DNA of 64,000 bases from contig NC_043007.1 of NCBI RefSeq assembly GCF_006345805.1, positions 70,928,001-70,992,000 of the forward strand, in the 5' to 3' direction. Of the stretch, positions 17,860-59,872 are shown piece after piece. Position numbers and translations under genes: made by a program. The DNA is from Octopus sinensis (taxonomy: Eukaryota). A model generated the notes under the pieces. The model did no database searches, had not been told where the DNA came from, and worked only from the letters and a program-made list of their open reading frames with translations. Position 1 is the stretch's first letter. Every line of letters starts with the position of its first letter.

Positions 17860-17900
17860 TTCTACTGATGAGGTATAATAAGACTGAAACATGTCTATAG
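17860..17900 (+). ncRNA. Minimal hammerhead-like motif, probably degenerate
   Basis: cta-CTGATGA-ggt...act-GAAACATGTCTA-tag; short stems. Confidence 0.45.
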
Positions 17901-28250: not shown

Positions 28251-28352
28251 TAAAGAAAGAAGAAGAACAATAATAAATGTCTTGGGAGATATGTCAGGAA
28301 ATACTGGATATTGTATGTGATTTGTTTTTGTTTTTTATTTTTTTTTATTCAG

Positions 28353-35492: not shown

Positions 35493-35510
<18 letters not shown>
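34774..35510. repeat. Left arm of a long inverted duplication (includes a SINE family 1 copy)
   Basis: Reverse complement of ~38427-39163; mirror ORFs in the track have identical translations. Confidence 0.95.
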
Positions 35511-36344: not shown

Positions 36345-36720
36345 ATAAAAGAATAACAGAATATAAATGTGTGCAAAGTACAAGAAATATTAATGCAGTA
36401 TATGGGGATTGGACAATAAGCGTAAGGCAGTGTCAATGGTGGTTCCAGAAATCCCGAGCCATAAACTACAGCCTAGAAGACGAGCCTCATCCTGAAAGAT
36501 CTGTAGAACTCGACAAGGACATCCTGAAAACCCTGGTGGAACAAAATATCATCGTAACTGTTGAGGAACTAGCAGAGAAGCTTGGATTTGGTCATTCAAC
36601 CATTCATTGACACCTGTGTGCTATCGGAAAAGTCAGCAAATTGGGTCAATGGGTTCCTCACGAACTTTCCGAGTCTAATTGCATGCAGAGAGTGAATGTA
36701 TGCTTTTCTTTGCTGTCATA
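36345..36720 (+). mobile_element. Mariner transposase N-terminal relic
   Basis: RNINAVYG...QWWFQK...SLEDEPH...TVEELAEKLGFGHSTIH*HL...LGQWVPHELS. Confidence 0.9.
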
Positions 36721-36745
36721 TCTCACCACTACTGCGCTATGTATA

Positions 36746-37382
36746 TCTATATATATAAAACTGTAGTTGTGTGAGTGTCTGTCCCCTTCGATTTAGATTC
36801 CTAACTACTCCCACATTTTGCGGTACAGTTTAACCAAATTCGGGTAGCTTATAGTCGTGATTCATATCGAGCCCGTCTGAATATTAGCGCGCATCTACGA
36901 TGAGTCTACGATTTTAAAAATAATTTAACATCATTTTTTATTCCATTTTAATGCATAATTTTTCGTGTGTTGATGGCGGCGGAGTTGGCGTCCACGCTCA
37001 CACCTGCACCTGTGGGGAAGGGAGTGTAAGGAAATCAACGTCGTAATGCGTTGTCAAGGAGACCAGTGTTCTTTTAGAACAACGACTTCATGGCTTGAAG
37101 ACACCAAAACAGAAATGGCTAAGAAAGCGTCTACATGAGTCTACGATTTAAACAAAAATTTACTATCGTTTTTTTTCCATTTTAATGCATTTTTTCGCTA
37201 TTATATAAGGGAAGTAACTCTCTAAAAATGTCTACGATGAGTCAACGATTTAAAAAAAAATTTACCATCATATTTTCTCCATTTTTAATGCATTTTTTGA
37301 TATTTTTTGGCTATAACTCTCTAAAAATGATTATATAGTTATTTCCCTTACAAACCCGAGCAACGCCGGGCGATACTGCTAG
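36746..37382 (+). mobile_element. Non-autonomous Helitron
   Basis: 5' TCTATATATATAAAA; 3' cccgagcaacgccgggcgatactgCTAG; homologous to 23148-23530. Confidence 0.85.
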
Positions 37383-37446
37383 TATATATATAAATATATA
37401 TATGAATAAATGAAAGAATGGAGCTGAACGAAGATGTTAACAAAAT

Positions 37447-37543
37447 TCCTTTACTCTCGACACCTGTTTCGAAGACAGCATACTTTTATTCCAAAGGAAT
37501 AAAAGGTGCATTATGCAATCTTCTCATCAGGAAAGATAAGGAG
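37447..37543 (-). ncRNA. Type-I hammerhead ribozyme motif, intact core
   Basis: ctttc-CTGATGA-gaaga...tcttc-GAAAC-aggt-GTC-gagag. Confidence 0.75.
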
Positions 37544-37590
37544 CCTCTCTCAGCCACAAAATTTTTTGTTCGTCTTGTGGCTGAGAGAGG

Positions 37591-37687
37591 CTCCTTATCT
37601 TTCCTGATGAGAAGATTGCATAATGCACCCTTTATTCCTTCGGAATAAAAGTATGCTGTCTTCGAATCAGGTGTCGAGAGTAAAGGA
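37591..37687 (+). ncRNA. Hammerhead motif with mutated core (GAAT instead of GAAA)
   Basis: CTGATGA at 37604, GAAT at 37664, GTC at 37673. Confidence 0.55.
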
Positions 37688-37903
37688 ATTTTGTTAACAG
37701 CTTCGTTCGACTCCATTCTTTCATTTATTCATATAAAAAACACACAAATTTCCACACAAGAACCCGGAGTTTCTACCCTTGACAGGTCGCTTCAACCGTG
37801 TTTTCTGACGAATTTTCCATGCTAGGATAATTCATTCACCTACTTAAATATATATATATATATGAAAGAAGGTTTGAAGATGCAATTTTAAAGATGTTTA
37901 TTC

Positions 37904-37945
37904 ACTTGACCGGTTTCACTTTTTTAGAAAAAGATTGTCAAAAGT
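37904..37945 (-). ncRNA. Variant minimal hammerhead (U3-A8 core)
   Basis: actt-TTGACAA-tctttttctaaaaaagt-GAAACCGGTC-aagt. Confidence 0.55.
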
Positions 37946-38192
37946 AAAATGTAAAACTTTGTATAAGCTTTGTTGTGTTAAGTACTGGTTGTCACAAAGT
38001 ATTACAATATATATATACATTCTTTGATAATAACAAGAAAATGTTAAAAACAGTTTACAAGGAAATATCTGACAAAATATTAGACAAAAAGTTCAATAAA
38101 AATATTAGTTCATTAAAAATCATGTTTGTTTGGAAGCATCTATATACATATGCAGAAAAGTATTAGGAGTTCAAAAACAGGCATATTTGGTA

Positions 38193-38245
<53 letters not shown>

Positions 38246-38257
38246 GGCTGAGAGAGG

Positions 38258-38354
38258 CTCCTTATCTTTCCTGATGAGAAGATTGCATAATGCACCCTTT
38301 ATTCCTTCGGAATAAAAGTATGCTGTCTTCGAAACAGGTGTCGAGAGTAAAGGA
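38258..38354 (+). ncRNA. Type-I hammerhead ribozyme motif, intact core (third copy)
   Basis: CTGATGA at 38271, GAAA at 38331, GTC at 38340; stems I and II as in 37447-37543. Confidence 0.75.
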
Positions 38355-38426
38355 ATTTTGTTAACATCTTCGTTCAGCTCCATTCTTTCATTTATTCATA
38401 TATATATTTATATATATATATATATT

Positions 38427-39163
38427 ATATATATATATAATTATATATTACTTGTCTCAGTCTTAGACTACAGCCATACTGGGGCATCACCTTGAAGAAT
38501 TTTTAATTGAATGAATTGACCCCAAACTCATTTCTGTTAAGCCTGGTGCTTATTCTATCATTCTCTTTTTACCAGACCACTAAGTTACAGGGACAAAAAC
38601 ACACCAACACTAGTTGCCAAACGATGGTGGGGGACAAACACACACACACACACACATAATTATATATTTATATATAGGACAGGCTTCTTTCAGTTTCTGT
38701 GTACCAAATTCACTCATAAGGCTTTGGTTGGCCCAAGACTATATAGTAGAAGAAACTTGCTCAAGGTGCCACACAGTGGAACTGAACCTAGAACCATGAG
38801 GTTGGGAAGCAAGCTTCTTACCACATATATAATTGCACAAATTCTCATCCACCTGTTGTATCCATACTATACCTTCACATCTCATGATCATCCATAATTT
38901 CCTTACTACAGAACATATTATCCACCCTCTCATATCTGACTCACCCTGCCATAACACTCTTAACTGAGACGAAAATACTCAATTTGTGTTTAAAGAATAT
39001 CTCCCTTACCCATACCACCACATCAACCACATATCCTGCCACCCCCTCAAAAATTCATGATCCTTACTGAATCATGAATCCCTGTGCTTGAGTGTGAAGG
39101 GGACTGCATGCTGACAACCTTTTCCTACCTCCCCTCTTTTGTCACTATGCTCTCTTGCACATG
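38427..39163. repeat. Right arm of the long inverted duplication
   Basis: Reverse complement of 34774-35510; ends at CATG and runs into (ATG)n. Confidence 0.95.
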
Positions 39164-39794
39164 ATGATGATGATGATGAGGATATATATACACACAGAAG
39201 GAGATATATTTAGGAGTTTACAAAGAATTTGAGATGAACTGACCTGTTTTAGCATTTTATATTTTATGTGAAGCTAATGGTTGTTTGCTATTTTAAGGGA
39301 CAATATGGGAGGTTGGTTGGGGTGGGGGAAAATTAGAGCAATGTGGAATTGAAAGGTTTTTTTTTTGTTTCACAGCTAGTCTTTCATGGTTCAGTGGTTT
39401 TTGGGACTGGTCTTAGAGGTCAGAATGGTGTGTGTGTGTGTGTCTCTGTGTATACACACACACATAGAGACATACACAGAGACTTAAAAATTATATGAAC
39501 CATTTAGCTTCTACTGTTATTTGCTTGAGTCTTTTTTCATTAGAATTTGTGAAGGTGCATGGCTTAGAGGTTAGGGCATCAGGTTCATGATTGCAAGACT
39601 GTGAGTTTGATTCTCAGTGGTGCTTTGTGTCCTTGAGCAAGACCCTTTAATTCATGTTGTTCCACTCCCCTCAGCTGGCAAAAATGAATTGTACCTGTAA
39701 TTCAAAAGGGCTAGTCTTGTTACATTCTCTGTCATGCTGAATCATCCTGAGAACTACATTAAGCTTACATGTCTCTGTGGAGTGCTCAGCCACT

Positions 39795-40032
39795 TTACTC
39801 TTTTACTTGTTTCAGTCATTTGACTGTGGCCATGCTGGAGCACTGCCTTTAGTTGATCAAATCGACCCCAGGACTTATTCTTTGTAAGCCTAGTACTTAT
39901 TCTATTGGTCTCTTTTGCCGAACCGCTAAGTTACGGGGACATAAACACACCAGTATTGGTTGTGAAGCAATGTTGGGGGGGGGGACACACAAACACAAAC
40001 ACATAAATACACACATACATACATACATATAT

Positions 40033-40075
<43 letters not shown>

Positions 40076-40238
40076 ATATACGATGGTCTTCTTTCAGTTT
40101 CCATCTACCAAATCCACTCACAAGGCTTTGGTTGGCCCGAGGCTATAGTAGAAGACACTTGCCCAAGGTGCCACACAGTGGGACTGAACTTGGAACCATG
40201 TGGTTGGTAAGCAAGCTACTTACCACACAGCCACTCCA
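39795..40238 (-). mobile_element. SINE family 1 nested in a family 3 SINE
   Basis: Full reverse-complement copy. Confidence 0.85.
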
Positions 40239-42156
40239 AGCTGACTGTTCCTTTGATTGGATCAAATGGAATGCTCATCATTGTAACGAACAGAGTGCGA
40301 GCTAAAGAATTTGGGTAATTCACATTGTCAAAAGCATTTTAAGAATCAATTTCAATCCTTCCTGAAACTGATAATTTCTCATTAAGAAGTAATCAGTAAT
40401 GCTAAGTAACCTTCTGTTCAGTATTTGCTTATGAAATATTGTCTACTAATAATGCTGTCATGTGTTAATTAGTTGGTAATTATTTGTAAGTGTGCTGTCA
40501 TTTTCTCCTATATAGGATTGACATGTGCAAATATAAATCACTTTGAGGAAAATAGGTTTCAATCGATCGATTTATTGGATCAATAATTTTGTTTATTGTT
40601 CCATTTCTAAAGTTTCCTATTCATCCATGTGATTCTCTGTTGTAGAAATATTTCTTTGAGATATGAAAAGACAGATTTAAAGAAACAGATAAATTCTCCA
40701 TTAGAAACTAGAATTTTCTGCAATTTACTTGTTTTTCTTGGAACAACTCTCTTACTCTTCATGGTCTTTGTCCACAAGAAACTTTTAAATGTCAGCACTG
40801 CACACCAACAGAAACTTTGACAATTATACACCTTAGATATATTCAACAATGATCTGTAACTCTTTTCTTGGAATGTATTTAGCCTGAAGAAATGATTGGT
40901 GTCCCTAAAGCTTCAGTTTTTTTTTTAATACTGTTTCTGGTAGCAGTTCCTAGAAGTTGGTAAGACTAACTTAGTTTGTTACTGTGGTGTTTACTAGTGA
41001 TAATCACTGTTTTTCTAACACTAATGTATTGTCATTTAACATTGGAAATTGTGAGAATCGTCTAAGGGAAGTTTATGGAAAGCCATGATAGTAAACTTGT
41101 TAGTTCTTTGAAGTTAACTCACACCATTTAGGTTGTTATTGCCCTTAAAACAAGGTTCTAATGCCATGCAATATTATTTCCTTTAGTACACATTTATGGT
41201 TTCCTGCTTAAGTATAAAAATCAATATCATATTTTTTTTTCATAATATCTCCCCAACATTAAACTCTTTTCCAGAAAAATTGTTTAAACCAAGTTGATAT
41301 TTTATAGAGGAAATTTTAGCATTAGTTTAAACATCTTTAATCAGTTTGTTTCTGTTTTTTTTTTCTTTTTTCTTCTTTATTCTATCTGAACTACATTATA
41401 TAACTTCCTCAAAATCACATCAATTTAGACGAAAACATGCAAGTGCAGAGAATCTGTTCTGCTTCAGTATAAAGATTTGAAGTACTTGTTACAGATGAGA
41501 TATTGTTATTAGCAAGAGAACTTCTACTCAGCAACTTTATCTCACAGACCATTCCTCACTATCTTCACTCTAACCAATATCTTGCCTCTTGCAGCAGCAG
41601 CTCACTCTTCAATGTGGCAGCTAATTTCCTTGAAATGACTTTTTTCTCAGGTAGATTCTTTAAGGCTATAATTGAATTGGTTTCCCCTGGAAAAATAAAA
41701 TTATTTTCGTTTTCCTGAATCTCTATAATTTCCTGTCTTATCTCCCTCTTATTTCACTCTCCACTTAGTTTTTTTCTCTCTCTCTCTCTCTCTGTCTCTC
41801 TGTTTCTCTTTCCCTCTCTTGTTCTTTCTTCCTCACCCACACACACATTGTGATAAGAAGAAAATAAGAAATATCAAATCAGAAACTTATAAAAAGCTCT
41901 CAAACAATACTGATTTGATCCTATCACCTTCACTTGATAAATATTTATGTTGTTGCTGTCGATGTTGTTTTCTGTTTTGGTGCTGGAGAAGACAACAAAC
42001 ATATTCTAATAAGGATGCTGTGGGCAGAGGTGGGCAGGGAGAGAGAGGATAAAATTGAATTTAGTTCTACTTTAAACCAGTCAAGTTAAACACACTCAAG
42101 GAAATGCCATCATTGACATTTTTATGTATGTACACGTGTGTGTGTGTGTGTGTGCA

Positions 42157-42187
<31 letters not shown>

Positions 42188-42489
42188 CTGCTAATGTGTG
42201 TTGTTTTTTTTAAGATGGCAACAACTATAATGAAATGCTTTTTGAATCTAAACAATATACTTTTTGTTGTTGTTGCTGTTCTTTAGCCCTTGGTCATCTC
42301 TGATCAAGCAGACCCATGATCAAAGGCATTCCACTACATGACTATCTTGTCTTTCAAACATTATTCAACATGAGTTGCCAATTTTTTTTTTTAAAGATCA
42401 TGGAATATAATTTAAGAGAAATTTGACCATTATTTCTTGCAAGCCAAGTGACATTGTAGAGATTCCTTCAATGTAGTTATATATATATA

Positions 42490-42875
42490 GGCACAGGCAT
42501 GGCTGTGTGGTAAGAAGCTTGCTTCCCAACCACATGGTTTTCTGGGTTCAATCTCTCTGTGTGGCACTTTGGGCAAGTATCTTCTACTATAGCTTTAGGC
42601 CAACCAAAGCCTTGTGAGTGGATTTGGTTGGTAGAAACTGAAAGAAGCCCATCATATATATGTGTGTGTGTCTGTTTTTGTTCCCCTGCCACCGCTTGAC
42701 AATTAATGTTGGTGTGTTTACATCCCCATACTTTGGCAGTTCAGCAAAAAAGAAAAAAAAACCCAATAGAATAAGTACTTGGTTTACAAAGAATAAGTCC
42801 TGGGGTTGATTTCTTTGACTAAAGGCAGTGCTCCAGTATGGTTACAGTCGAATAACTGAAACAAATAAAAGAGAA
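42490..42875 (+). mobile_element. SINE family 1
   Basis: Family head and tail present. Confidence 0.85.
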
Positions 42876-42899
42876 TATATATATATATATATATATATA

Positions 42900-43520
42900 A
42901 TTTTTGTATGAGAAAAAGAAAATGGAGAAATTGATACATAGACATTAATTTATTAGAACATTTTCAATTCCAAACAATATCAAACCCATTGCACCTACAA
43001 TTGTTTCTATGCCCAACCAATTCAATTTAAGAAATTAAATTACATTTTCATATTGAATATCGTTTATTTCGTCAGGAGAAGAATTTGATAGAAAAGAGCT
43101 ACATTCCATTGTGTTGTTTGGCCCTTGTTAGACTCCAATATGTGCGTTTCGGCAACAAATGTATTTAAAAAAAAATGTTACTTGTGTATATGTATATGCA
43201 AATTTGTTAATGCATTTGTCTGTGTGTGTGTAATGTGTTGACAAACAAAAGCATCCATTAGTTAGCTTAAACAATATTTGGTTGGGCATAGAAACAGCTG
43301 TAGGTGTAATGGGGTTTATATTGTTCGGAATTGAATATGTGCTAATAATTAATATCTGTATACCAATTTCTCTGTTTTCTTTTTCTCACACAAAAATGGT
43401 AAGATACACATATCCATCAATGTGAAACTAACATCTTTGGTTTTTCACTGATACACTGGATAAAACCGGAGAACTTGGATGCTAACATCCCTTTAAGAGG
43501 ATTTTATATCCTTGGTTTAA
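42900..43520. mobile_element. Older fold-back element in (TA)n with degenerate hammerhead halves
   Basis: ~42901-43020 pairs with ~43279-43396; GAAAC-AGCT-GTA and GAAAC-AATT-GTA in the arms; CTGACGA on the minus strand near 43069-43075. Confidence 0.7.
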
Positions 43521-45251
43521 TTTAATTATATATATATATATAATTAAATTAAACCAGATATCTGTATGCATTAGCAAATAATTTGCTTGTTTCCTATAAA
43601 CGAGAGCTTGTGCTCTTGTCAGATTCATCAGCTCAGTGGGGTTTCTTTGACTGAGTTAGAAACACCACAGGGAATCAAAGTCCCTTCACACTGATGAACC
43701 AGTGAATCACGTGTGCCATGGACACAGTACCTGAATGAAGGTGTTCTCTCAGGGTTGATTGAAGAACTGGAATAGTTGAAATATTGAGACAAATGGAGAG
43801 GCCTTTCACTTTTTATTGCTGCAGTTGCTTCAGATTGTAAGTGCATAGTTAATCTCAGCGATAGTGTAGTACTTGTATGCCCGCTCTACTTATTAAAATC
43901 TGGAAGTTGAAAATTTTGTGGTGTGTTAATAATTGAATTTTTATTTCTGTTGGTTATTTGAAGCCTATTCATGAACAGGGGTGTGAGGGACAATAAAGAT
44001 CAAAAATTGAAATTCTGGAAATAACAATTAAGGAATAAGATGCAACACAATGTCCTTTATTGTGTTATTGATGTGTAAACACATAACTACATACATCACT
44101 TGCTCATAGATACTCACCCGCTTTCTTTCTCTGTATATGTGTATGTATAAATATTTGTGTTTATATATTTGTGTGTGTATGTGTGTGTGTATAAACATGT
44201 TTACATATAGACATGAGCAAACACATGCATACATGTATGCATATACGTATACACATTCATGTATCTGTGCAACTAACTTTAAACTGTTGCTGCTGTTGTC
44301 CCTGACCAAAAATACCATTCCTTCTTTTATTCAAACCCCACATTTAGAGTGAATGTTAGTGTCCATATAAAGTGCAATATATGTAAATGTTCAAAGCCTA
44401 CAAATGAACATACAGTAAAGCATCAGGGAAAATTTAAATATGTTCAATTAACAATTTGTCAATTGAAATCGATATGGTGTTCCATAGATTTTTCTGCCTG
44501 TAGCATGTCATAAAATTTTACTGATTTTTCAGTGAATCAAAGAAAGATGAAACAGAAACAGTATGATCAGAGAAGCTGGCAAGAGATTTATTGGAAAAAT
44601 TATAACACCATTATTGATTCTAATTCACTTATTCCCCACCCATCGTCATTCAAATTCATACTGCCGACTTTCTCTTTTCTCTCCTTCCTCCTTTCTTTAT
44701 TTCTTATTGCAAAAAGAATATATAATTGTTTTATTATTATTGCCCAAACTCTTCCTCTACACATGTCTGCTATAACACTTACTACGTTAACTATTGACTA
44801 TTGTATTCTTTCACTCCTCTACCACATACTATAATTAATACTAAATTATATATTCCACTATGTTGCCTTCACTACAACAGTATCACACTGTTAACTAGAC
44901 ACTCTAATTACTACTAATGTTATCTTATGCTATTACTACATCTTCCCTTCTTTAAACAATATCATCTACATTGCTATATGCTGCATTACTAACAATACAG
45001 CTGCTCTATATCTTCTTGTGTAATACTGCTTCGATACTATCAACCAACTGATGCACTTATCCTTTAGCAATGTGAATTAGTTTCCTCGCTTTCCTACAAA
45101 CCCCCAGCAACTCTGTAGTATTACTATACTAACATATCAAACAAGAGACAAATATAAATATTGCAATATGTCTTAGATATCATCATCATTGTCTCTTGAT
45201 ATTTGGCACAATTTACAGTAAACTGTGTTTGTGTGTGTGTGTGGGGCAGTA

Positions 45252-46411
45252 TGTCAAAGGGATAGCCTCAACGTTACCTCTGCATGTCAGAATAGCCCCA
45301 ATGTTACTTCTGCATGTCAAAAGGATAACCCCAACATTACCTCTACATGTCAAAAGGATAGCCCCAACGTTACCTCTGCATGTCAAAAGGATAGCCCCAA
45401 TGTTACCTCTGCATGTCAAAAGGATAGCCCCAACATTACCTCTGCATGTCAAAAGGGTACCCCCCAACGTTACCTCTGCATGTCAAAAGGATAGCCCCAA
45501 TGTTACCTCTGCATGTCAAAAGGATAGCCCTAATGTTACCTCTACATGTCAAAAGGATAGCCCCAACATTACCTCTACATGTCAAAAGTATAACCCCAAC
45601 GTTACCTCTGCATGCCAAAAGGATAGCCCCAACTGTTACCTCTACATGTCAAAAGGATAGCCCCAACATTACCTCTACATGTCAAAAGGATAGCCCCAAC
45701 GTTACCTCTGCATGTCAAAAGGATAGCCCTAATGTTACCTCTGCATGTCAAAAGGATAGCCCCAACATTACCTCTACATGTCAAAAGGATAGCCCCAACA
45801 TTACCTCTGCATGTCAAAAGGGTACCCCCCAACGTTACCTCTGCATGTCAAAAGGATAGCCCCAACGTTACCTCTGCATGTCAAAAGGGTAGCCCTAATG
45901 TTACCTCTGCATGTCAAAAGGATAGCCCCAACATTACCTCTACATGTCAAAAGGATAGCCCCAACATTACCTCTGCATGTCAAAAGGATAGCCCCAACAT
46001 TACCTCTGCATGTCAAAAGGATAGCCTCAACATTACCTCTGCATGTCAAAAGGATAGCCCTAACGTTACCTCTGCATGTCAAAAGGATAGCCCCAACATT
46101 ACCTCTGCATGTCAAAAGGATAGCCCCAACATTACCTCTGCATGCCAAAAGGATAGCCCCAACATTACCTCTGCATGCCAAAAGGATAGCCCCAACATTA
46201 CCTCTGCATGTCAAAAGGATAGCCCCAACATTACCTCTGCATGCCAAAAGGATAGCCCCAACATTACCTCTGCATGTCAAAAGGATAGCCCCAACATTAC
46301 CTCTGCATGTCAAAAGGATAGCACCAACGTTACCTCTGCATGTCAAAAGGGTAGCCCCAACATTACCTCTACATGCCAAAAGGATAGCCTCCAATGTTAC
46401 CTCTGCATGTC
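45252..46411. repeat. 33-bp minisatellite, ~35 copies
   Basis: Unit tgtcaaaaggatagccccaac(a/g)ttacctctgca; no spacers. Confidence 0.97.
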
Positions 46412-46609
46412 ATAAATGGTGATTATAGGAGGTTGAGATAGGATTTGCCCTCCGACCTCATAAAACCCTCACCGGCAATGATTATCCAAACAAACGCAAA
46501 GTTTGGAGGGGGCTTTTTGCCTGAGTGGTGCAAAGGTGTCATCCACCAGGAGCATTAGAGAAGCACCAACAAATGGTGGATACAGCAATGTGGTATCACA
46601 ATGCATGCT

Positions 46610-46669
<60 letters not shown>

Positions 46670-46714
46670 AGTAAACTGGATTTAGGAATGATTCAATTTA
46701 ATGTATCATTTTAT

Positions 46715-47340
46715 CTTTTACTTGTTTCAGTCATTAGACTGTGGCCATGCTGGGGCACTGCCTTGAAGAATTTTTAGACAACTCTATCCGCCCCAGTACT
46801 TATTTTTAAAAGCCTGGTACTTATTCTATTGGTCTCTTTTGCTGAACTGCTAAGTTTAGGGGTATGTAAACACTCCAGCACTGGTTGTCAAGTGGTGATG
46901 GAGAGACAAACACAGACACAAAAACACATACACGCACACACGCATGCGCACACACACACACACAACGTGCTTCTTTCAGTTTCTTATTTCTTTATTGCCC
47001 ACAAGGGGCTAAGCATAGAGGGGACAAACAAGGACAGACAAAGGGATTAAGTCATTACATTGACCCCAGTGCATAACTGGTACTTAACTTATCGACGCTG
47101 AAAGGATGAAAGGCAAAGTCGACCTTGGCAGAATTTTAACTCAGAATGCAACGGCAGATGAAATACTGCTAAGCATTTTGCCTGGTGTGCTAACGTTTCT
47201 GCCAGCTTGCCGCCTTTCAGTTTCTGTCTACCAAATCCATTCACAAAGCTTTGATTGACCCAGGGCTACAATAGAAGACACTTGCCCAAGGTGCCATGTT
47301 GTAAGACTGATCCTGGAACCATGTGGTCAGGAAGCAAGCT
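46715..47340 (-). mobile_element. SINE family 1 interrupted by a SINE family 2 copy (46985-47213)
   Basis: 12-bp TSD ctttcagtttct at 46973 and 47214. Confidence 0.85.
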
Positions 47341-48090
47341 TTGAACATATTTAGTTTGGTTTTATTAATATGAATATATTGTTATTGTGAATGGATTTTT
47401 GAGCTAAAAATTCAACCACTTCTGTGGTTTTATTCTCTAAGTCTGGTGGTTCCAATAAAAGTTAAAGTGTTTTTACATCCCTCAAAAGTTATGAAACCAT
47501 AAAAAAAACCTGATCTCTTAGACTCTCTTCTTTCACGAGTTATCAGATACTAAAATACTCCCCCATTTAAACTGCAGTTACATTTATTTAATTTAGTTAG
47601 AAATTATTCATGTTGTATAAACCACTTCATAACAGTAGAACTAGTTGGTTCAATATAGGGAAGTATTTTAAAACGTTTGATACGTATTAAAGTTTTAGTT
47701 GTCTAGCTCCAGTTTGGTAGGAATGTATATGTTGATAACTGAGTAACTGCAATATCAGAAGCTCTTGGCTTTATTTTAGGAAGCTCTATGTAACTTGTCC
47801 TATGTTTTATTACTTTGTATAAACAAAGTAACAGTTTATAGTTGCTGGTTGAAGTTTGACAATAAATAAGCAAAATTCTTTTACTTTTACTCGTTTACAT
47901 CATTAGATTGTGGCCATGCTGGGGCACAACCTTGAAGAAATTTTAGCTGCATAAATTGATCCCAGTACTTTTTCTTTAGGCCTGACACTTATTCTGTCAG
48001 TCTCTTTTTACCAAACTGCTAAGGGATGCAAACAAACCAACACAAGTTGTCAAGCAGTGGTTGGGGACAAATGTAGACACAAAGACACAT

Positions 48091-48147
<57 letters not shown>

Positions 48148-48879
48148 ACACACACACATACACACACAAATATATGTAAATATATGATTGACTTCTTTCA
48201 GCTTTCGTCAACCAATCCATCACAAGGATTTGGTTGGTCCAAGACATTTGCCCATGGTGCCATGCAGTGTGACTGAATATGGAATGATGTGTTCTTACCA
48301 CACAGCCATGCCTGTGTCTAACATGATTAATAGTTGATTTCCTAATATAATGTGAATTGGTAAATCCCATTTTAAAATCCATTCAGTCAAAATAAGGAGA
48401 GGTTGTCAGTGAAGTATAAAACTGTTTAACAAGTGTTTACTTATACATGATAATATTTAAAGGGTTGTCTTAAGAAATTATTTTTCAGTTTTTTTTTCAA
48501 CCATGAGGTTCACTACATCTGAACATTTCCAGGAAGGAAAAATAAAATTGTAATTTGTTACAAGTGATGAGGTGCAAGAAATTCTAGAAGATTCTGGTAA
48601 AGATCAACAGGTTTGATCAAAAATATTCACAGGATAACTTGAAGTCAGCTGATTATTTCAAATGTAAAATGATAATGATGTGTCTCAAATGAGACATGAT
48701 TCTTAATCAGCTAATGGTACTGGTGATGGAATATTAGTATTAGATTAATACATTACCATTTCCATTTAATATCCTCAATTTTGGGATGTTGCTGTTAAGT
48801 AGCTTTCAATGAAATATTTATCTTTATTTGTGACATTCTTTTCTTTGTGTGCTTGGTGTGGAGTTCAGCTACAAACACT

Positions 48880-49440
48880 TGCTAGCAGAAATGTTAGCAT
48901 GCCAAGCGAAATGCTTAGCGGTATTTCGTCTGCTGCTACATTCTGAGTTCAAATTCTGCCGAGGTCGACTTTGCCTTTCCTCCTTTCGGGGTCGATTAAA
49001 TAAGTTCCAGTTACACACAGGGGTCGATGTAATCGACTTAATCCATGTGTCTGTCCTTGTTTGTCCCCTCTGTGTTTAGCCCCTTGTTGGTAGGAAAGAA
49101 ATAGGTATTTCGTCTGCTGCTTTGTTCTGAGTTCAAATTCTGCCATGGTCGCATTTGCCTTTCATCCTTTTGGGGTTGATTAAATAAGTACCAGTTATGC
49201 ACTGGGGTTGATATAATCGACTTAATCTGTTTGTCCTCTCTGTGTTTAGCCCCTTGTGGGTAGTAAAGAAATAGGTATTTCATCTGCCGCTTCTGAGTTC
49301 AAATTCCGCTGAGGTCGACTTTGCCTTTCATCCTTTTGGGGTCAATTAACTAAGTACCAGTTATGCACTGGGGTCGATATAATCAACTTAATCCGTTTGT
49401 CTGTCCTTGTTTGTCCCCTCTGTGGGCAGTAAAGAAATAA
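48880..49440 (+). mobile_element. SINE family 2, tandem trimer
   Basis: Three head-to-tail ~175-bp units ending aagaaata. Confidence 0.85.
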
Positions 49441-49980
49441 AAAAAAAAACACTTGTTGTCTCTCTTTGATTTGGGCTGAGAGGGTTAAACATAAATATAT
49501 ATCTATATCCTCTTCTTTTTCTTCAGCTTGTGAGTGATATCTCAACAAGCTCAGGGTTTTGTGAAGCACACTTGTGACTACTCTCATCCAGCTGGGTTAT
49601 TTGCAAAGAGGCAATGGCCAAATAATCGAGACTGTTGGCGATTTGCTGTGCTTGAGAAGACATGTCAAGCTTAGTGAAATCATGGCCAATGCCGGTGACA
49701 TGTAAAAGACACCCATGCCAGTGACACATTATAGGTACCTGAACTGGTGACACATTAAAGGCACCCATGTCAATGGCACTTTAGAGATACCTATACTGGT
49801 GGCACATAAAAGGCACTTGGTACACTCTGTGTGGTTGTCTTTAGGTAGGGCATCCAGCCATAGAAACTATGACTTGGTGATTTCAATGCTCAGTTAGTCT
49901 TTGTGACCCAAATCTTTAGCCATTCTGATTCATTATAGTCACCAGCATATCTCTCTGATTGACACACAAATGGATACTCC

Positions 49981-50151
49981 AGGAGTGGCTGTGTGGTAAG
50001 TAGCTTGCTTACCAACTACATCGTTCCGGGTTCAGTCCCACTGTGTGGCATCTTGGACAAGTATCTTCTACTATACGCTCGGGCTGACCAAAGTCTTGTG
50101 AGTGGATTTGGTAAATGGAAACTGAAAGAAGCCCATCATATATATGTATAT

Positions 50152-50206
<55 letters not shown>

Positions 50207-50437
50207 ATGTATGTGTGTGTGTATACATTTGTGTGTCTGTGTTTGACCCCACAACATTGCTTGACAACCAATACTGGTGTGTTATGTCCCCGTAACCTAT
50301 TGGTTCGGCAAAAGAGACCGATAGAATAAGTACTAGGCTTACAAAGAATAAGTCCTGGGGTCAATTTGCTCGACTAAAGGCGGTGCTCCAGCATGGCCAC
50401 AGTCAAATGACTGAAACAAGTAAAAGAGTAAAAAGAG
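49981..50437 (+). mobile_element. SINE family 1, full length
   Basis: Complete head, internal (TA)n and (gtaaaaga)n tail. Confidence 0.88.
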
Positions 50438-51384
50438 TTTATTCATGATTTCATTCTCACATTCAAACTCAGCCTTTACCAAACTGTCTGTGCCTTCCTG
50501 GTACATAAGATCACTGTCAAACCAATATCAATCTCCACATTCTTATATGCTTCAGCCAGCTGAACTCCACTCATTTTATGCTAATTATACCTCACAGCAA
50601 ATATGCATCACTCTTTAGCCAGCAGGTAGCCAAAAGACTTGTCCAAGACATGTCTCTTCACATTGCTTACATGTTCAAAAGCCATAATTACTGGTCTTTC
50701 AAGTCATTCACCTGTGTTGGAGCAATTCCAGTAAAAAAACATGGTTTCCAATATCTAGAGAAAGATGGTGAGCTGGCAGAATTGTTAGTGTGTTGGATAA
50801 AATGCTTGATGGCATTTATTTCAGGTCTTTATTTTTCTGAGTTCAAATCCTGCTGAGGTCAACTTTGCCTTTCATCCTTCCGGGTCAGTAGAATAAAGTA
50901 CCAGTGAGGTACTGAGGTCAATGTAATCAACTTGCTCCCACCCCTCTCAAAATTGTTGGCCTTGAATCCTGCAATAGAAAGGGAATGGTGTGATTAGAGT
51001 CACTTTTACATCAATGAAACTGGGTAACTGGCCTTATGAGTTTTTACAAGTCAAGAAAATAGGGAAAAAAGTAGCTGGAGAAACTAAAACATTTCTATAA
51101 AAGGTGGCTTTATGGTTGACACTGGAGGTAGGCCTCATGGACTTTGATTAAATAAATCAGTTCTCTAACACTTCTGAAACATTTTATTGTTACCTTTCAA
51201 ATATGACATTTCATGTCAAACAATCTAATTTACGTCAGTGAAGGCATGTGACTGAGTGGTTAAGGTATTCGGCTTATGATTGTTAGGTCATGAGTTCAAT
51301 ACCCAGTGGTATTCTAGCAGAATAAAATAGTAGGAATCAAAGGGGTCCATAGGCAAAAAAGTGGTGGAAAACCATTGCTCTGCA

Positions 51385-51500
51385 TTAACCTTTAGCATAC
51401 TGTAGGCGCATCATGTCACCATATAAGTTCTCTCCCTTGTGGTAACAGGGCAGGGGCAGGGAAAACAATTCTAGAGAAAATGCAGTGTACTAAGGGTTAA
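51385..51500. mobile_element. Small piggyBac-like MITE
   Basis: TTAA-cctttagcatactg ... cagtgtactaaggg-TTAA. Confidence 0.65.
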
Positions 51501-52429
51501 TAATTGGATAGCAGAAAATACTAGTCAGTTCAATGGCTGCCCTCCTGCAAAGTTCCAGTAAGACCTACAACAGTAAGGTACATGTATCTAGTAAGGTGTT
51601 GCTGCTAAACACCCTGAAACAACCCCTAACACATTCAAATAAAAACCATCCATTAGATTTACAATGATCCATTTACTGACTCACTTCAACCTGCAACCCT
51701 CAAACAAGTGCTATCTTTTCACTCTGCTTCTTCTGTTGGTGCTGCTGTTGCCTTTGCTCTTCTTAGTTCACTAGTTGTATATCACCTCAATCCAAGATGA
51801 CATGACACAGCCCATCATTACTGCTGTTGTTATTCATACTGTGTCCTCCCCCTCTTAGGCCTCCAAATGTGAACCCTATAAAAATCCCATCCCCTTTATA
51901 TTTTTCTTGATGACATCAACTTGTAGATATTCAAACATCAACTATGTCGTTGTGACCAATGTCAGAAGACCTGAAAAAATTAGCAGAAGTATTCCCCCTA
52001 CACACTTCTCTTCGCCTAAACCAACGAAAACTAAAACTTTGATCTGCTAAATTGGTTAATTTTGTTTTCTTTTTATGCTTTATGCATGCACACATGCACG
52101 CACGTGTGTTTGCATCGCACGCACACAGACAGACACACACACACACACATGGAATAATATTGAACAGAGAAAGTGTATGTTCAAAACTGCATTTGTAGGA
52201 TAAATATTTTTTATTTATGGATTAACGGTGCTACCAATTATTTTATGTGGAAAGAATTTTCCCAGTCATCATGCAATCTCCTTCAAGATAATGGTAATGG
52301 CTTTCATTTTGGATGAGATCCTCCAAAACTGAGGCAATTACCAGCACTTTTAAATGAATCACTTGAAAATTGTAAAAATTCTTACTACATGAAATCACTT
52401 GCAGCACTGTTAATCCACAAATAAAGTAG

Positions 52430-52471
<42 letters not shown>

Positions 52472-52907
52472 TTGTGATCATCATTATCAACTTTTAACAT
52501 CTGTTTCCCATGCTGGCATGGGTTAGATGGCTTGACAGGAACTGGCAAGGCCAGGGGCTGCACCCAGTTACTTAGTCTATTTTGGCCTACAGGATGTCAC
52601 CAAAGCAATGAGAAAAATGGAAAACAGGACAACATAGAGAAGAGACCCGTCATCAGTTGTCAGCTGTCTATCTACTTCTTGTTTTGAACATTCAATGACA
52701 ATATGAGTCTTCAAAGACAGTTGCTCCCATAAATTCTAAAATGAAATTTAGGATTTATGGAAGGTCAAAGTTGGGAACAAAAACATGGCAGTGGAGGCAT
52801 ACAAGGAAACCGAATAAAAACACGCATGGAGGGTCATAAGACCAGAACGAGGGAAAAATCGTGAATGCTGGGAGAAACATTTGTTTGAAAAAAGAAAAAT
52901 AGAAGAA

Positions 52908-52962
<55 letters not shown>

Positions 52963-53114
52963 AAACAACATATATATATATATATTATATATATATATAC
53001 AGGCTTCTTTCAGTTTCCGTCTACCAAATCCACTCACAAGGCTTTGGTCAGCCCGAGGCTATAGTAGAAGACACTTGCCCAAGGTGCCACATATATATAT
53101 ATATATAAATATAC

Positions 53115-53166
<52 letters not shown>

Positions 53167-53814
53167 TATATACATATATATGATGGACTCTCCCATCGTT
53201 AAATGATGTATGAGGGTTTGACAATTTCTTAACAAACAACCACACAGATGATTTGTTTATAGTGATCAGATGTTTGTGTAGACATAAGCTCACTGTCTCC
53301 ATCAGATTGACATTACCTGTACAAGTGCAAAGCTGCCACATGTCTGATGTCGAAATGATCTCAGAGCAACTGGAAATGAAATGCTTTGCTCAAGAACACA
53401 ATGCAACACCCAGTCTGGGAATTGAAACCACAATCTCGCAATCATGAGTGCAACACCTTAACCGCTAAGCCACATGCCTGTATATGTAGATTTCACCTGA
53501 ATGAAAACAAACATGGAGGGTCATAAGACCAGAACGAGGGGAAAATTGTGAATGCTGGGAGACACATTTTTTTGAAAAAAGAACAGAAGAGAGAGAGAGA
53601 GAGAGAGAGTGAGAGAGAGAGAGTGAGTGAGTGAGAGAGAGAGAGAAACAATATACACACACACACACAGTAAACAAGTAGACAGAGAGACAAGTAAAAA
53701 AGAGAGACAGAAAGCTAATATGGAAAAAAAGATATATAATATCTATAGTTGCAGAGACTTTTCACATTTGTATATTTTGGTGATGTTTTAAAATAAAACT
53801 TTCTTTCTCTTCAG

Positions 53815-53954
53815 CATCTCCTTGGAGTTCGACTTGAAGACCTTGGTGGCCGCCAAACCATTTCCCGAACTGCCAGAAACAAACCTACAGTGGCTGACAC
53901 ATTTAAGCATCAACTCTCAGCCTTAGTTGATGTTTTGAAGTTAACAAATCCTTG
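53815..53954 (+). CDS. Myo22: Myosin motor exon (loop 2 region): HLLGVRLEDLGGRQTISRTARNKPTVADTFKHQLSALVDVLKLTNP(W)
   Basis: ttctcttcag acceptor, gtaagt donor; 140 nt, phase 0/2; KPTV...F..QL..L...L..T.P motif that normally precedes YVRCIKPN. I did not find that next exon in the window. Confidence 0.93.
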
Positions 53955-55036
53955 GTAAGTCATCTAGAAACGGCATAACTAATTCCTCTTTTTTAACAAA
54001 TACTTCAACACCCTCTCACCTCATCCTTTTATTCAATTATTGTTCTATAAATTTCTGGCAAGATGAGATGGACATGTAATTTACAACTCATAAATTCCGT
54101 ATCTTTTATATTTATCTCCTTTAACCATCACTACCATTATCACCATTATCACTTCAGTGACATCATTATCATCATCATTGTCACCACCACCATAACCACC
54201 ATGATCATTATCAATATCATCACCTCTACCGTCATTGCAATCACCTTCATCACAACATCATCACCACCACCATGCCCACAACCACGACGATGACCACCAC
54301 CACCACCAGTATCATCACCTCTACCATCATTGCAATCACCTTCATCAACATCATTATCATCATCATTATTATTATTATTTTGATGATGACCATCATTATT
54401 ATTATTCCCAAAGCCATCATTATTATGCTTCCCTTTGCAACATTCTTTGAGAAAATGAAATTCTAAAGGCGAGATGCATCATTAGAATAGCAAAATAATA
54501 TTGTTTCTGGAACATTTAGAATCTTCAAACTTTATGAAACATTAAATTATCAGAAAACATAAATGAAATATCAAAACTTGGTTGGACACGCACTTACATA
54601 TACATGCACACTCACATGTTCACGCACACACTCACATCCATACAGACATGTATTCATTCACAAACTTCCCCCTCACCCCCTCTTTGAATTTCTTAATGCT
54701 ATGATATGATTATCACTCAAGTCCTCTTGATTTTAATATTTAATTAATAAGCGTTATTTGTTTGATTTAATGTTTGATTTTAACAACCAATAATTAATTC
54801 AGAGTCATCTACGAAATGGTTTTGATCTTGGCTCAGTAAAACACTCACCTGTTTTATACTTGACATCTTGAGATAACAACCTGGTTTACAATAGAGGTTA
54901 GCTTGCCAAAGGTAAAAATGTTGATTAATTGCTATGTGACATTGGCTACCTTGGAGTATGTCTTTTTGAGGATGGGGATATTACGCAAAAATGTCAAGAC
55001 CATGATCTTTTCTGTGATTTTCTCACCATCTTTGTA

Positions 55037-55072
<36 letters not shown>

Positions 55073-55162
55073 TACTGCTTTGTCTAATGAAAGGTGACAC
55101 ATCCACAAGGCCATGATCTTTTCTGTGATTTTCTCACCATCTTTGTAGCCAAGATAAAGAGA

Positions 55163-55231
<69 letters not shown>

Positions 55232-56093
55232 AGAGAGAGAAGAGAGAGGTTTACTGTTTTGTCCAATGAAAGAAGACATATTCACTGATAGTCAGATAGT
55301 TTGTAAATTCCAGCATTGCTATTAAAAAAAAAAAGAGGGATAAAGATGGCACATATATCCCCACTGGATGGGATGCTAGTCTCTTGCAGGATTACTCATT
55401 TTTGTCAACTAAGTGGACTAGAACAATGTGAAATGGAGTTAGCTGGTCCAGGAATTGAAATCAGAATCTCATGATTATGAGACTAACACCCTAACCCCTT
55501 AGCCACATGCCTCCACTACCATTTCTATTCCTAAACAACAACAGATATATTAAATCCTGGTTCATCCTCATCATTATCACCACGCCACATAATATTGACA
55601 ATAGTCAACATTGTCATAGAATGAAAGATGTTCTTCTATAAAGCACACCAGTGTATTCTGGGGATGGAGGTTGGGAGAACTTAATAAATAACACATGACA
55701 TAGCAATGAAGTTTGAGGCATTGTGTTTGAGACACTAGTTTTGTCACCTTTCAAGGAATATTACATCTAGCTTTATTTAATCTACATTTTATGTTGAGTT
55801 CACAACTTGACAGCATAATACATTTGCAAAGTATTAAGCAACAATCAACCTTTTCAGATGCAATACCACAGCACAAAACCATACTGACAGACTCTCAACA
55901 AACGCTCTTGACAGCTTTGTCAAAATGCAAATGTATTAAAGCATATGAAATATTGTGTATCAATATATAGCCGATATCTGAGAACATAAATTTCTACTAA
56001 GATTTGTACTCTCCCTCCCCCCTCTCTCTCTTTCTTCATATTACATATATGTATGTATGTATGTATATATGTATGTATGTATATGTATGTATG

Positions 56094-56125
<32 letters not shown>

Positions 56126-56185
56126 TACATACATACATACATACATACATACATACATACATACATACATACATACATGCATACA

Positions 56186-56227
<42 letters not shown>

Positions 56228-56549
56228 ATAATATATATATATATATGTATGTATGTATACACACACACACACACATCTTTTATCTTTTACTTGTTCCAGT
56301 CATTAGACTGCAGCCATGTTGCCTTGAAAAATTTCAGTCAAATTAACTGAACCCAATACCTACTTTAAAGCTTGATAATTATTCTATCAGCTACTTTTGC
56401 TGAACTGCTAAGTTACAGGGATGTAAATGCACCATCACCAATTGTAAAGTAGCAATGATATACAAACCCAGACACAAAGACACACACATATTGACATATA
56501 TATATATATTATATATATATATATATATATACATATATACATATATATT

Positions 56550-58790
56550 CGTCCTCATTCATCCTTATTCGGCCTTCTAGCTCTGCTATCAGTGTACTTA
56601 GCAAAAATATTCTAAATAAATATATTCCTACCTTAGTTAAAAAAAATTAAACCTTAATTTATGGTCCAATTCCTTCCAAGTGGTCGACTGGTTTAATTCT
56701 ATTAATAACAAGAAGTACACTAAGTTTATCTAGTTTGACATTTCTAGTTACTATTCCTCTTTTAACCCAATTGTACTTAACAAGGCACTCTGGCTTACAC
56801 ACAACAAAGCAGGTGTCACCAGGGATGAAATTAATGTCATGTTAGCCACCAGAAAAATCAACCATTTAATTTGAAAACAAGCTGTGGGTCTGTAAAGATA
56901 TGCCTGTCAGTTTTGATGCCATGATGGGAAGTTTTGATTCATCCTTTATGAGATGGCTGACCAATTCTCAAACATCAGTGGAGGTCTATATCGTGAAGAT
57001 TGTTTACTCTACCTTCAAAATGTTTCTAACCAAAAGTTACAAAGGGTTAAAAATAGGTTGGTTGAATTTTTCTGAAACATGGGCTTAAGCATTGTTTTCA
57101 AAAATGGTATAACTAAACCTGACATTTTGGATATTACCCTTAACTTATATAATGATTCATATTTCCCATACCATAAACCCTCAATTAATTTTAAATATAT
57201 TAGTTCTTTCAGTAATCATTCAAAGGCTATTACAAGGAATTTAGTTAGAAATATTTCACTTAGACTTACTAGATTATCTGCCAATGTTGATATCTTCAAC
57301 GAGAAAGCTGAATTTTATAACTCTGCTTTACTTAAAGTACATGAAATTACGGCATAATGGTAATAACAATATAAATTTTAGTTCGAATAACTATGCATCG
57401 AAAAATTTAATTTTGCAGCGTAAGGAAGATAGCTGTTCTTTAAGACCCTTGTTTTGTTATAAAAGTAAATCTAGGACTTTTGAAGATAATTACCCTAATT
57501 ACAAGGTATGTCCTAGTAAAACTGTTTGGTTGATAATTCCATATGGTAAGCAGATTAAATCCAACTTCCTTTACCAGTTTCTTGAAGCTATAGATAAGAA
57601 TTTCCCCAAAAATTCAAGATACCATTCTATTATCAATTCACACCAAATCAGAATAGGGTTTTCAAACACCAAAAACCTTTCACAAATCATCTCTTTGCAT
57701 AACAATAAGTTGTTAAATACAAATCCACTTTATGAAAATAATAACATTGATATTATTAACACCTATCATTTTTTTAACAATAATAACAACAATATTAGAA
57801 TTTCTGATGTAAATTCCAATCACATTAATTTCCTTAGCAGGAACTCTGTTTATCAATGTAAAATTACTTCCAGTTCTGATGTCTTTTTTTACATAGGTAG
57901 TTCTTTATCTCAGTTGTCCAAAAGAATATCTAACCATTACTCTACATTTAGACATATCAATAAACACAACAATACTGGGCTTAGTAAATTAATTTGATCT
58001 CTGAAGGAACATAATAAACAACTTGATTTGGAATGAAATATTCTATCTAAGTCCTTTCCATATGATAAAGGTAAATCTTCTTGTCCACTCTGTAATGAAG
58101 AACTCTATCTCATCCTGTTCTCAGAGAATTCTCTTGTAAACACATTTAAAGAATGCTTTTATTGTTGCAAACATTGGCAAAAACATATCTTTAGTTCCTA
58201 TAAGTAATTTCTACCAGTCTATAAAATTCAGCCTTTAACTGTCTTCTTACATTCCATTTCCACTAAATATATCTATTTCCATGCCTTTAAGTTTTATTCC
58301 CACTCATCTATTGCACTACATTTCTCTACTCTTGGTTTTCTGCTAATTTCTTTCTTTCTCCTCCTTCTCTGTCTCTAAATTGAATTTGATGTTAAATCTA
58401 TTAATGTTATTTTTTAAAATAACTTGCTAGTGTTCCCCTCATCATATATGCAGTCATCACATTCTATTAAAATGGCTTATTGATGTGTTTTATTTCTCTC
58501 TTTTTCTTCCCTGATGAGAAGATCACATTATTTTACATCATTTTATTCCCTCTGGAATAATACCAATGTTTTCTTTGAAACATATGTCGGAAGTATAAAG
58601 ATTTGAATAACACCTTGTGTTTAACTCCATTTCTTTATTTATCTGTTATACAAAAACATTTCACTAAACCCTGGAATTTCTACTTTTATAAGTAGGCTGT
58701 AACATCCTTGGTACTTATGTGAATTTTTTGCTACCCTTTATTTATTTTTTCAATGTTATTTGTACACATTGAAAAATACACATACATTTA
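56550..58790 (+). mobile_element. 5'-truncated, decayed Penelope-like retroelement (RT plus C-terminal GIY-YIG endonuclease; Naiad-like) between (TA)n tracts
   Basis: RT motifs FDISSYYSS, FDAMMGSFD, GLYRED, LDITLNL, PYHKP..YI...SNH; nuclease VYQCKI...YIG...KRISNH, CPLCNEE; multiple stops and frameshifts; coding ends ~58205. Clade name is from memory. Confidence 0.9.
58506..58593 (+). ncRNA. Type-I hammerhead ribozyme motif in the PLE 3' pseudo-LTR
   Basis: cttcc-CTGATGA-gaaga...ttcttt-GAAAC-ATAT-GTC-ggaag; perfect 5-bp stem I and palindromic loop III. Confidence 0.8.
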
Positions 58791-59872
58791 TATGTGTGTG
58801 TGTTTATATATATATATATATATATATATGTTGGTGTATTTACATCCTTGTTACTTAGCAGTTTGGCAAAAGAGACCTATAAAATAAGTATTAGGCTTTA
58901 TAAAAATACTGAGGTCAATCTGTTCAACTAAAATTCCTCAAGATACTGTTCCAGCATGGCTACAATCAGATGACTGGAACAAATAAAAAGTATATATATT
59001 TTAGTGTATGTATTTCATATATACCTAATACATGCATAATGTGCAGTTTGTGTTAACTGACACATTAAGTTTTGCCCTACAACTTATTCAACTAATGTTA
59101 AATGCTACACTTTCAAGTATTTATATTGGAAAACAAGAGGAAAACCTTATGAAAAGATAGGCAGTTTAAAAGTAGTGGTTTATATCAGTTGTAAAAATTA
59201 CAATACAAGGAATTTTTATTTTATTTGCAGTTGGAAAAAGAAATAGTTTAATGTTGATAAAAGAAAAATAGGTTAAGTCAGCAGACAGATAGGTGCAAGA
59301 TAAAATGAGGGTGGATAGAGGAATTATAGTTGTATAGCTTCAACTGTTAGCAAACCATTAAAATATAGCTAAAGAATACTGTAATAGTATTATTGGTTGG
59401 ATCTTATTCATAGAAGAATGATGGATAATGTTAGTGTATAACTGAAGAAATATTTACACAAAAGCAAATAAAGATATTGAATTTCTTAAACCAAGTGTAA
59501 AATTAAATATATTGACTTTTATAGTGTTAATAAAGGAAATTCATTGATGTTTTAGATGATAGAGCTAGCTGGTTGTAATTTTTGAGGGTTTAAAATGTTT
59601 TAGGGTTTTATATGTCAGGTGTTGGCAGATATGGATTATTTCAGAGTGTTTATTATTAAGTGTAGGCATTTTTGTGTATCTGTGTTTGTATGATCATTTA
59701 GATTTATGTATATGAACCCTAAAGCCTTTCAAAAAATTTACAAAAGAATCTGCCTCACTGCGCTATAAAATAGAGCCATTGTTTCACTCCTCCACTGGAA
59801 AATATTCAAATAAGCAAACCTGATGAGTTCTTCAACATTGTAGATCCATACAAGGAAGAGACAACATTGAAA

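Follow-up and report, generated by a model that had tools for sequence, protein, structure and literature searches.

The window analysed here, 64,000 nucleotides of the Octopus sinensis genome (RefSeq assembly GCF_006345805.1, contig NC_043007.1, positions 70,928,001 to 70,992,000, forward strand), contains two related repeat units, one near 37.4 kb and one near 58 kb. Both are very probably decayed, 5′-truncated insertions of sister protein-coding families of Hydra-type Penelope-like elements (PLEs), whose pseudo-long terminal repeat (pLTR) carries a hammerhead with a conserved helix II region of 53–59 nt that likely cleaves weakly and as a dimer. The elements form a high-copy Hydra-type subclade, new here, comprising many families with a covarying, extended helix II and without a zinc linker; the copies in the window are unexceptional remnants within introns. 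The original prediction, made from the letters of this stretch, had read the 37.4-kb unit as a non-coding, retrozyme-like element mobilised by a Naiad-like PLE. Families are denoted by letters (A–K) coined in this analysis, and plus and minus positions are counted from the predicted cleavage site.

The homology proposed by eye between the 37.4-kb unit and the 3′ end of the PLE is borne out. Local alignment of 37575–37835 with 58498–58735 gave a score of 138, against a mean of 26 and a maximum of 43 in 1000 dinucleotide shuffles. The segment 3′ of the cleavage triplet, aligned separately, scored 70 (shuffle maximum 40), so the homology is not confined to the hammerhead core. The two units represent sister families, A (37.4 kb) and B (58 kb), that are ~71% identical, and neither unit therefore descends from the other. 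Across the families, 3′ ends fall at two fixed sites, site 1 at approximately +55 to +72 and site 2 at +200 to +226. With reference to these, the 37.4-kb unit and its surroundings comprise:

37399–37559, minus strand: family-A inverted arm, a 5′-truncated 3′ end (−100 to +60) that stops at site 1 beside (TA)n
CUGAUGA from 37530, C17 at 37459, minus strand: inverted-arm hammerhead, core intact, 53-nt helix II region, loop III mutated to GG
37560–37846, plus strand: family-A direct arm, which begins at −115, passes site 1 and continues via the tail to site 2
37604–37675, plus strand: direct-arm hammerhead, 53-nt helix II region, GAAT core with A15.1 changed to T at 37667
37736–37846, plus strand: PLE tail, equivalent to the start of the 5′ untranslated region (UTR) of the next unit, reaching the start codon of the open reading frame (ORF) in full tandems (L119, L113, L130, L140)
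38242–38402, plus strand: second family-A arm, core intact at 38271–38342 (53 nt, C17 = 38342), loop III GG
38426–39163, no strand assigned: flank, a 100% inverted copy of 34774–35510 (~740 nt) that extends the duplication holding the second arm

The inverted and direct arms are joined head to head. The 15 nt at the turn of the fold-back (its ‘loop’) belong to the element itself, and the tail of the direct arm has a private deletion of ~30 nt. Rfam microRNA matches at 37452–37682 merely reflect the fold-back. The second arm has a 5′ breakpoint identical to that of the inverted arm, which together with the 100% inverted flank makes it part of a local inverted duplication or an assembly artefact, not a separate insertion. 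The pair 34774–35510 and 38426–39163 is itself a recent duplication or an assembly artefact, and it contains a repeat resembling a short interspersed nuclear element.

The 37.4-kb unit had been called non-coding, and although this copy indeed has no ORF, its family is coding. A copy count, proposed along with that reading, returned 427 exact genome matches (G000) for a family-A 25-mer and none for the reversed control. Reverse transcriptase (RT) and/or endonuclease (EN) sequence lies upstream of the same 3′ end in seven of the 14 family-A loci that were extended upstream (52–73% identity to the window PLE), half of the 14 having been picked because PLE similarity was already apparent. Locus L032 begins with an inverted arm of 161 nt and then has RT, nuclease, 3′ UTR, hammerhead and tail in order; L112 has an open RT-EN frame of 644 aa and ends that are 87–89% identical to the 37.4-kb unit. 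L117 and L119 are further coding loci with this 3′ end, and in L119 the tail of an upstream pLTR runs into the start codon. Such coding parents speak strongly against a separate non-coding parasite. The 5′ breakpoints of family-A copies vary continuously, and within this graded series of 5′ truncations of a coding family the 37.4-kb unit stands at the short end.

The coding character of family B is visible in the window, where the (TA)n insertion that had been proposed for the PLE is also confirmed by its flanks:

56549–58207, plus strand: family-B Hydra-type PLE, 5′-truncated in the region ahead of the RT core, with a YREDD-type RT motif near 56990 and, C-terminal to the RT, a GIY-YIG nuclease
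58506–58593, plus strand: family-B pLTR hammerhead, stem I UUCC/GGAA, core 58511–58517, palindromic ACAUAUGU, C17 = 58588
58589–58793, plus strand: 3′ portion of the family-B copy, with site 1 at about +55, a tail extending to site 2 at about +205, and (TG)/(TA)n beyond

The window PLE (56549–58793) contains several stops and frameshifts. Searching at the protein level yielded 9644 candidates; many of the 150 that were scored have long open frames. The full ORFs (775, 895 and 902 aa) encode RT and then a C-terminal GIY-YIG, the order of the window PLE, in a single frame, with DKT, YRDD and CxxC-E...N-CxH motifs. DKT, in place of DKG, is present in six of nine own-genome ORFs (L112 and L118 begin downstream of it; L125 reads DMT), and CxxC and CxH surround the conserved nuclease E and N in all nine, the window nuclease reading CPLCNEE...CKH. 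The CCHH motif is absent from the ORFs, as judged by eye against the alignment in PMC8557442. These are the features given there (section 11) for the Hydra clade: RT then GIY-YIG, DKT, CxxC/CxH around E and N, and no CCHH. In the same source, Naiads have an N-terminal nuclease and no canonical hammerhead. The elements here have RT first, a C-terminal nuclease with Hydra motifs, and a hammerhead, and no N-terminal GIY-YIG; they are thus not Naiads, and this part of the original prediction falls.

The nearest proteins found are 30–41% identical and belong to ~700-aa elements, many of which have RWK/RWR, DKT and CxCx5C; among 10 whose source was checked, two come from Argonauta hians. A quick tree was rooted at its midpoint and contains no outgroup or named references; in it, the 10 own-genome rows form one group with support of 100 amid Hydra-motif proteins. 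Some points weaken the placement in the Hydra clade. The CxCX5C linker is found in none of the nine ORFs, which have an Asn/Ser-rich stretch in its place (a pattern match in L129 falls in a translated microsatellite); ORFs long enough to include the RWK position read RIRWL, thus RWL for RWK; and the comparison with published Hydra reference proteins is one of motifs rather than of tree position. As the linker is lacking, the elements are classed as a variant Hydra subclade and not as typical members. A Pfam search named neither RT nor nuclease, full ORFs included. Some families of the subclade combine open frames (775–902 aa) with thousands of copies.

Type I hammerheads had been predicted in both units, and their cores (CUGANGA, GAAA, UH) are present at 38271, 58511 and 37530 (minus strand), the latter within the inverted arm. 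The predicted cut sites at 38342 and 58588 coincide with the predicted C17 of the cores at 38271 and 58511. The core at 37604–37675 is damaged, and this direct-arm hammerhead is predicted to be inactive. A part of family C also departs from the core consensus, carrying U4C. The unusually long stem II that had been described in both units is likewise present. It comprises 12 bp, an internal loop and a distal hairpin, and a core with a 53–55 nt helix II occurs in 26 of 40 loci around RT matches, with the remainder having core changes, deletions or no 3′ end. The family-B copy (58511) has a decayed 59-nt helix II region, and its minimum-energy fold is without helix II (z −1.66).

To assess conservation, we aligned 21 copies, one or more per cluster, selected for clean cores. 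Of their cells in paired columns, 92.0% are paired, compared with 84.8% in shuffled alignments (0 of 500 shuffles reach the observed value) and 36–55% when the columns are slid. Changes on both sides of the pair are seen at seven of the 12 proximal pairs in helix II and at three of the five in stem I; both stems thus covary in this test, which had been proposed at the outset. RNAalifold independently predicted 10 of the same helix II pairs, and did not predict stems I and III. Among these copies the core varies mainly at N7 and H17, with H17 never G, and a UUAUU in the unpaired or weakly paired part of helix II is invariant in sequence across families. Single-sequence folds were significant against shuffles for family A (z −3.3) and family F (z −2.7).

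Loop III is an 8-nt palindrome that forms no hairpin by itself. Its central pair is UA in 10 copies, UG in eight, CG in two and unpaired in one, with self-duplex energies of −7.0, −6.0 and −10.3 kcal/mol for UA, UG and CG. Since the central bases are adjacent, they can pair only between molecules. A monomer forms no stable helix III, and the motif is of dimer type. The palindromic, dimerising loop III of the original prediction thus applies to the other variants, which are self-complementary, and not to the three window family-A copies; these share a private GG-containing ACAGGTGT, where other family copies have ACATGTGT, and its self-duplex reaches just −1.6 kcal/mol, whereas the other variants span −6 to −10.3. 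Every motif in the window is damaged in the core, loop III or helix II, and the window copies are likely inert.

A search with the Rfam hammerhead models, one of the checks proposed at the outset, matched Hammerhead_1 at 38265–38348, below its gathering score (14.1 bits compared with 34, E 1.1). No hammerhead appeared among the 150 listed of 157 whole-window matches, and none in L140 1450–1830. Published descriptors use a 7–17 nt spacer and ‘half cores’ of 35–50 nt (PMC8557442). The motif lies outside these descriptors and below the Rfam thresholds, and so thousands of cephalopod hammerhead-like motifs have likely gone uncounted. In the literature compared, which leaves outside Repbase/Dfam and Lunse et al. 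2017 (which may cover long-helix variants), no long-helix cephalopod PLE hammerhead is described, and the main text of PMC13282606 does not contain ‘hammerhead’, ‘ribozyme’ or ‘Hydra’.

Short-helix motifs were also observed. One in the window (17865–17895, plus strand; CUGAUGA, 14 nt, GAAACAUGUC) has a palindromic loop III and a weak stem I, folds no better than shuffles and is likely a relic of a different PLE family. Short-helix hammerheads of other PLE families, including one head-to-head pair, stand beside long-helix elements at L110 5776–5783 and L132 5842.

The arms of the insertions end at either of the two 3′ sites. In family D, 80 arms end at site 1 and 66 at site 2 (+220 to +226). 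Head-to-head pairs combine one site-1 arm with one site-2 arm in 52 of 54 cases in family D and in 9/9 unselected family-A pairs, two non-adjacent pairings being excluded from the counts; the same combination is found in 17/17 and 10/10 pairs of the tail-selected A and B sets. Arm breakpoints lie no more than 20 nt apart in 31 of 46 resolved pairs (mean of 12 and maximum of 23 in 10000 shuffles), in a set that includes many loci chosen for short arms. The tail is ~140–160 nt and lies in the 5′ UTR, about fourfold longer than that of the green anole PLE. For PLEs, one-ended tails as well as truncated copies in inverted orientation have been described (PMC8557442), and two internal RT starts account for tails (PMC11167929). 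Five separate family-D insertions (L218, L224, L234, L259 and L263) have a common breakpoint of −171/−171, which suggests a fold-back hotspot.

Evidence on cleavage was sought in family D, where a 25-mer at +1 has 3122 exact matches, 2729 of which keep the 12 upstream bases. Genome-wide junction probes at +1, +5 and −3 gave 16, 13 and 19 matches, with 10, 8 and 6 true truncations. An apparent +1 footprint in two of 100 listed arms was discarded, as these probes show no enrichment. Without a 5′-end pile-up at the cut site, the templates are not mainly cut RNA. In four runs, putatively of RNA, assembled contigs fill 30/30 bins of a family-D element (L140 1380–4600), although contigs carry no ends, strand or level. 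In runs of four organism labels, 54–75% of sampled words from the same element are present, and family D is accordingly common to close relatives. Published metazoan PLE hammerheads cleave weakly and as multimers only (PMC4209133), and that of the anole PLE needs protein and is dispensable for insertion in vitro (PMC11167929). On balance we lean towards weak, dimeric cleavage here as well.

Several observations weigh against this reading. Further pair types do not exceed shuffles (469/500), and related sequences can exceed a shuffle control without structure. Selection of the 21 copies for clean cores inflates core invariance. The CG to UG to UA series in loop III is also expected from CpG decay, single folds of families D (L140, z −0.28) and E (L130, z −0.43) are no better than shuffles, and in families D and I stem I has just 3 bp. 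Starts of family-D copies show no enrichment at the cut site relative to +5 and −3. Finally, U4C occurs in both pLTRs of a family-C lineage whose ORFs are open (28 of 34 rows, five of them repeats of one locus); this lineage is amplified, with 432 exact matches against 314 for U4, and a canonical core is therefore not required for amplification. U4C lowers activity in vitro and is tolerated in a viroid (PMC3088659). At L107–L110 and L078–L103, family C is represented by near-identical young copies with 778-aa open frames and a U4C hammerhead.

Some of these points are shared by the reading that the structure derives from a hammerhead whose cleavage is no longer needed, and that it persists because it serves the pLTR in protein binding, as a promoter or in RNA pairing. 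The 432 matches of the U4C lineage, the lack of 5′ ends accumulating at the cut site and the invariant UUAUU would fit this, as would the anole PLE, which inserts in vitro without cleavage and has no RNA ends at its hammerhead site (PMC11167929). Yet the changes tolerated across families match the ones that active hammerheads tolerate (N7, H17 not G, G10.1-C/U11.1), there is covariation in stems I and II, and the sole fixed core change, U4C, is a variant that works in vivo (PMC3088659); we regard this alternative as possible and somewhat doubtful. A narrower proposal, in which the hammerhead is an RNA pairing and docking scaffold, with loop III joining two pLTRs, helix II and UUAUU replacing the zinc linker as a handle for the RT-nuclease, and ends primed at site 1 and site 2, seems to us quite unlikely. 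If true, it would yield the one-of-each rule of head-to-head insertions with or without RNA cutting. At the opposite extreme, cleavage could be efficient, with unit RNA ligated into a circle that serves as template, so that cDNA crosses the re-joined site. This model, proposed in PMC4209133, would account for partial tandems and site-spanning copies; however, uncleaved tandem read-through RNA is simpler and is the main substrate in vitro for the anole PLE (PMC11167929), and metazoan PLE hammerheads showed low activity (PMC4209133), making the circle unlikely.

That the 37.4-kb unit is a non-autonomous retrozyme-like element, with small circular RNAs and mobilised in trans by a PLE, as originally predicted, is highly improbable and already largely refuted. 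The window copy has no ORF, most family copies are short, and an origin of animal retrozymes from PLE pLTRs has been proposed (bioRxiv 10.64898/2026.07.22.740005). Against this, the coding parents end in the same 3′ end and breakpoints are variable. Retrozymes are defined as head-to-tail tandems (PMC7229834, bioRxiv 10.64898/2026.07.22.740005), whereas close neighbours here are head to head, and no head-to-tail tandem, nor any same-strand neighbour within 1 kb, was found among 100 listed matches each for families A and D. Two same-strand family-C pairs among 100 matches listed, 198 nt (C4:89877936–89878163 in G000) and 130 nt (C4:97672490–97672649) apart, would favour a retrozyme; they are short partial tandems and possible raw material for retrozymes.

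We therefore return to weak, dimeric cleavage in a coding PLE, for which we propose the following course. A tandem copy would be transcribed from its upstream pLTR, and the RT-nuclease would nick (TA)n and prime reverse transcription at the internal 5′ UTR sites of mostly uncleaved RNA, for which the anole PLE provides an in vitro precedent. cDNA synthesis would end early and either fold back or meet a second cDNA, which would produce the 37.4-kb hairpin. In the tandem transcript, the hammerheads of both pLTRs would pair via loop III and inefficiently trim unit-length RNA from host read-through, perhaps assisted by protein.

Both insertions lie, as had been noted, in one gene, a plus-strand MyTH4-FERM myosin whose relatives are molluscan. 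They occupy different introns, with the family-B copy and two family-A arms in sense:

28350–28592, plus strand: myosin exon upstream of the family-A insertion
53809–53955, plus strand: myosin exon separating the insertions, with an approximate right end

Further myosin exons are at 15716, 19822 and 21276, and the next one lies past the window (L273:9629). Since each family numbers hundreds to thousands of copies, finding two in a single large gene is unremarkable. A myosin intron also holds a 33-bp tandem repeat (45251–46412, 35 copies) that is open in several reading frames. Upstream of the family-A insertion is a TA-bounded repeat (36738–37385, minus strand) with short internal direct repeats, an end of which also flanks L026 and which may be Helitron-like. 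It adjoins a degenerate transposase fragment (36284–36740, plus strand; ORF 36284–36610), presumably Tc1/mariner-like.

For the role of the PLE hammerhead, the subclade offers a natural series of many families. It includes young open-frame copies, a covarying, extended helix II, different versions of loop III and a U4C lineage that has amplified alongside the related U4 lineage. This series makes the need for cleavage, for dimerisation and for helix II directly testable.

Compared with known systems, the elements are closest in organisation to the Hydra clade (PMC8557442), which includes Hydra-1_Obim of Octopus bimaculoides, with a hammerhead and protein of a different family. Shared are the order of RT and GIY-YIG, DKT, CxxC/CxH, absence of CCHH, (TA)n insertion, a type I hammerhead in the pLTR, a short palindromic helix III and inverted 5′-truncated copies. 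The differences are a helix II region of 53–59 nt, compared with 10–24 nt in 26 Hydra rows of File S2, an Asn/Ser-rich insertion for CxCX5C, RWL for RWK, and units of up to ~3.6 kb rather than <3 kb. A precedent for the size of helix II is found in the spike-moss PLE-X1_sMoe (9+35+9 = 53 nt) and PLE-X1_sTam (File S2, PMC8557442), unrelated, EN-minus, rDNA-targeting elements marked as deviating, for which that part of the table gives no covariation. Naiads, including those of cephalopods, share the (TA)n preference, inverted 5′ copies and tails, and differ in their N-terminal nuclease, CxC domain and lack of a canonical hammerhead.

The dimeric minimal PLE hammerheads (Cervera and de la Pena 2014, PMC4209133) are likewise type I motifs in pLTRs with a short stem I and palindromic positions at loop III, and truncated PLEs give dual motifs on opposite strands, 100–700 bp from each other. 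The helix II called ‘larger than usual’ there has 7–8 bp, compared with 12 bp, an internal loop and a distal hairpin here. Animal non-LTR retrozymes (PMC7229834; bioRxiv 10.64898/2026.07.22.740005) share the type I hammerhead and a proposed pLTR origin, but are head-to-tail arrays of short non-coding units, in contrast with head-to-head truncation of a coding element. In Poseidon PAc of the green anole (Frangieh et al. 2024, PMC11167929), which belongs to a different clade, the hammerhead site similarly bears no end traces, targets are AT-rich, and two internal 3′ end sites define the tail, which is 30–40 bp and within the ORF in PAc and ~140–160 nt and within the 5′ UTR in the octopus elements.

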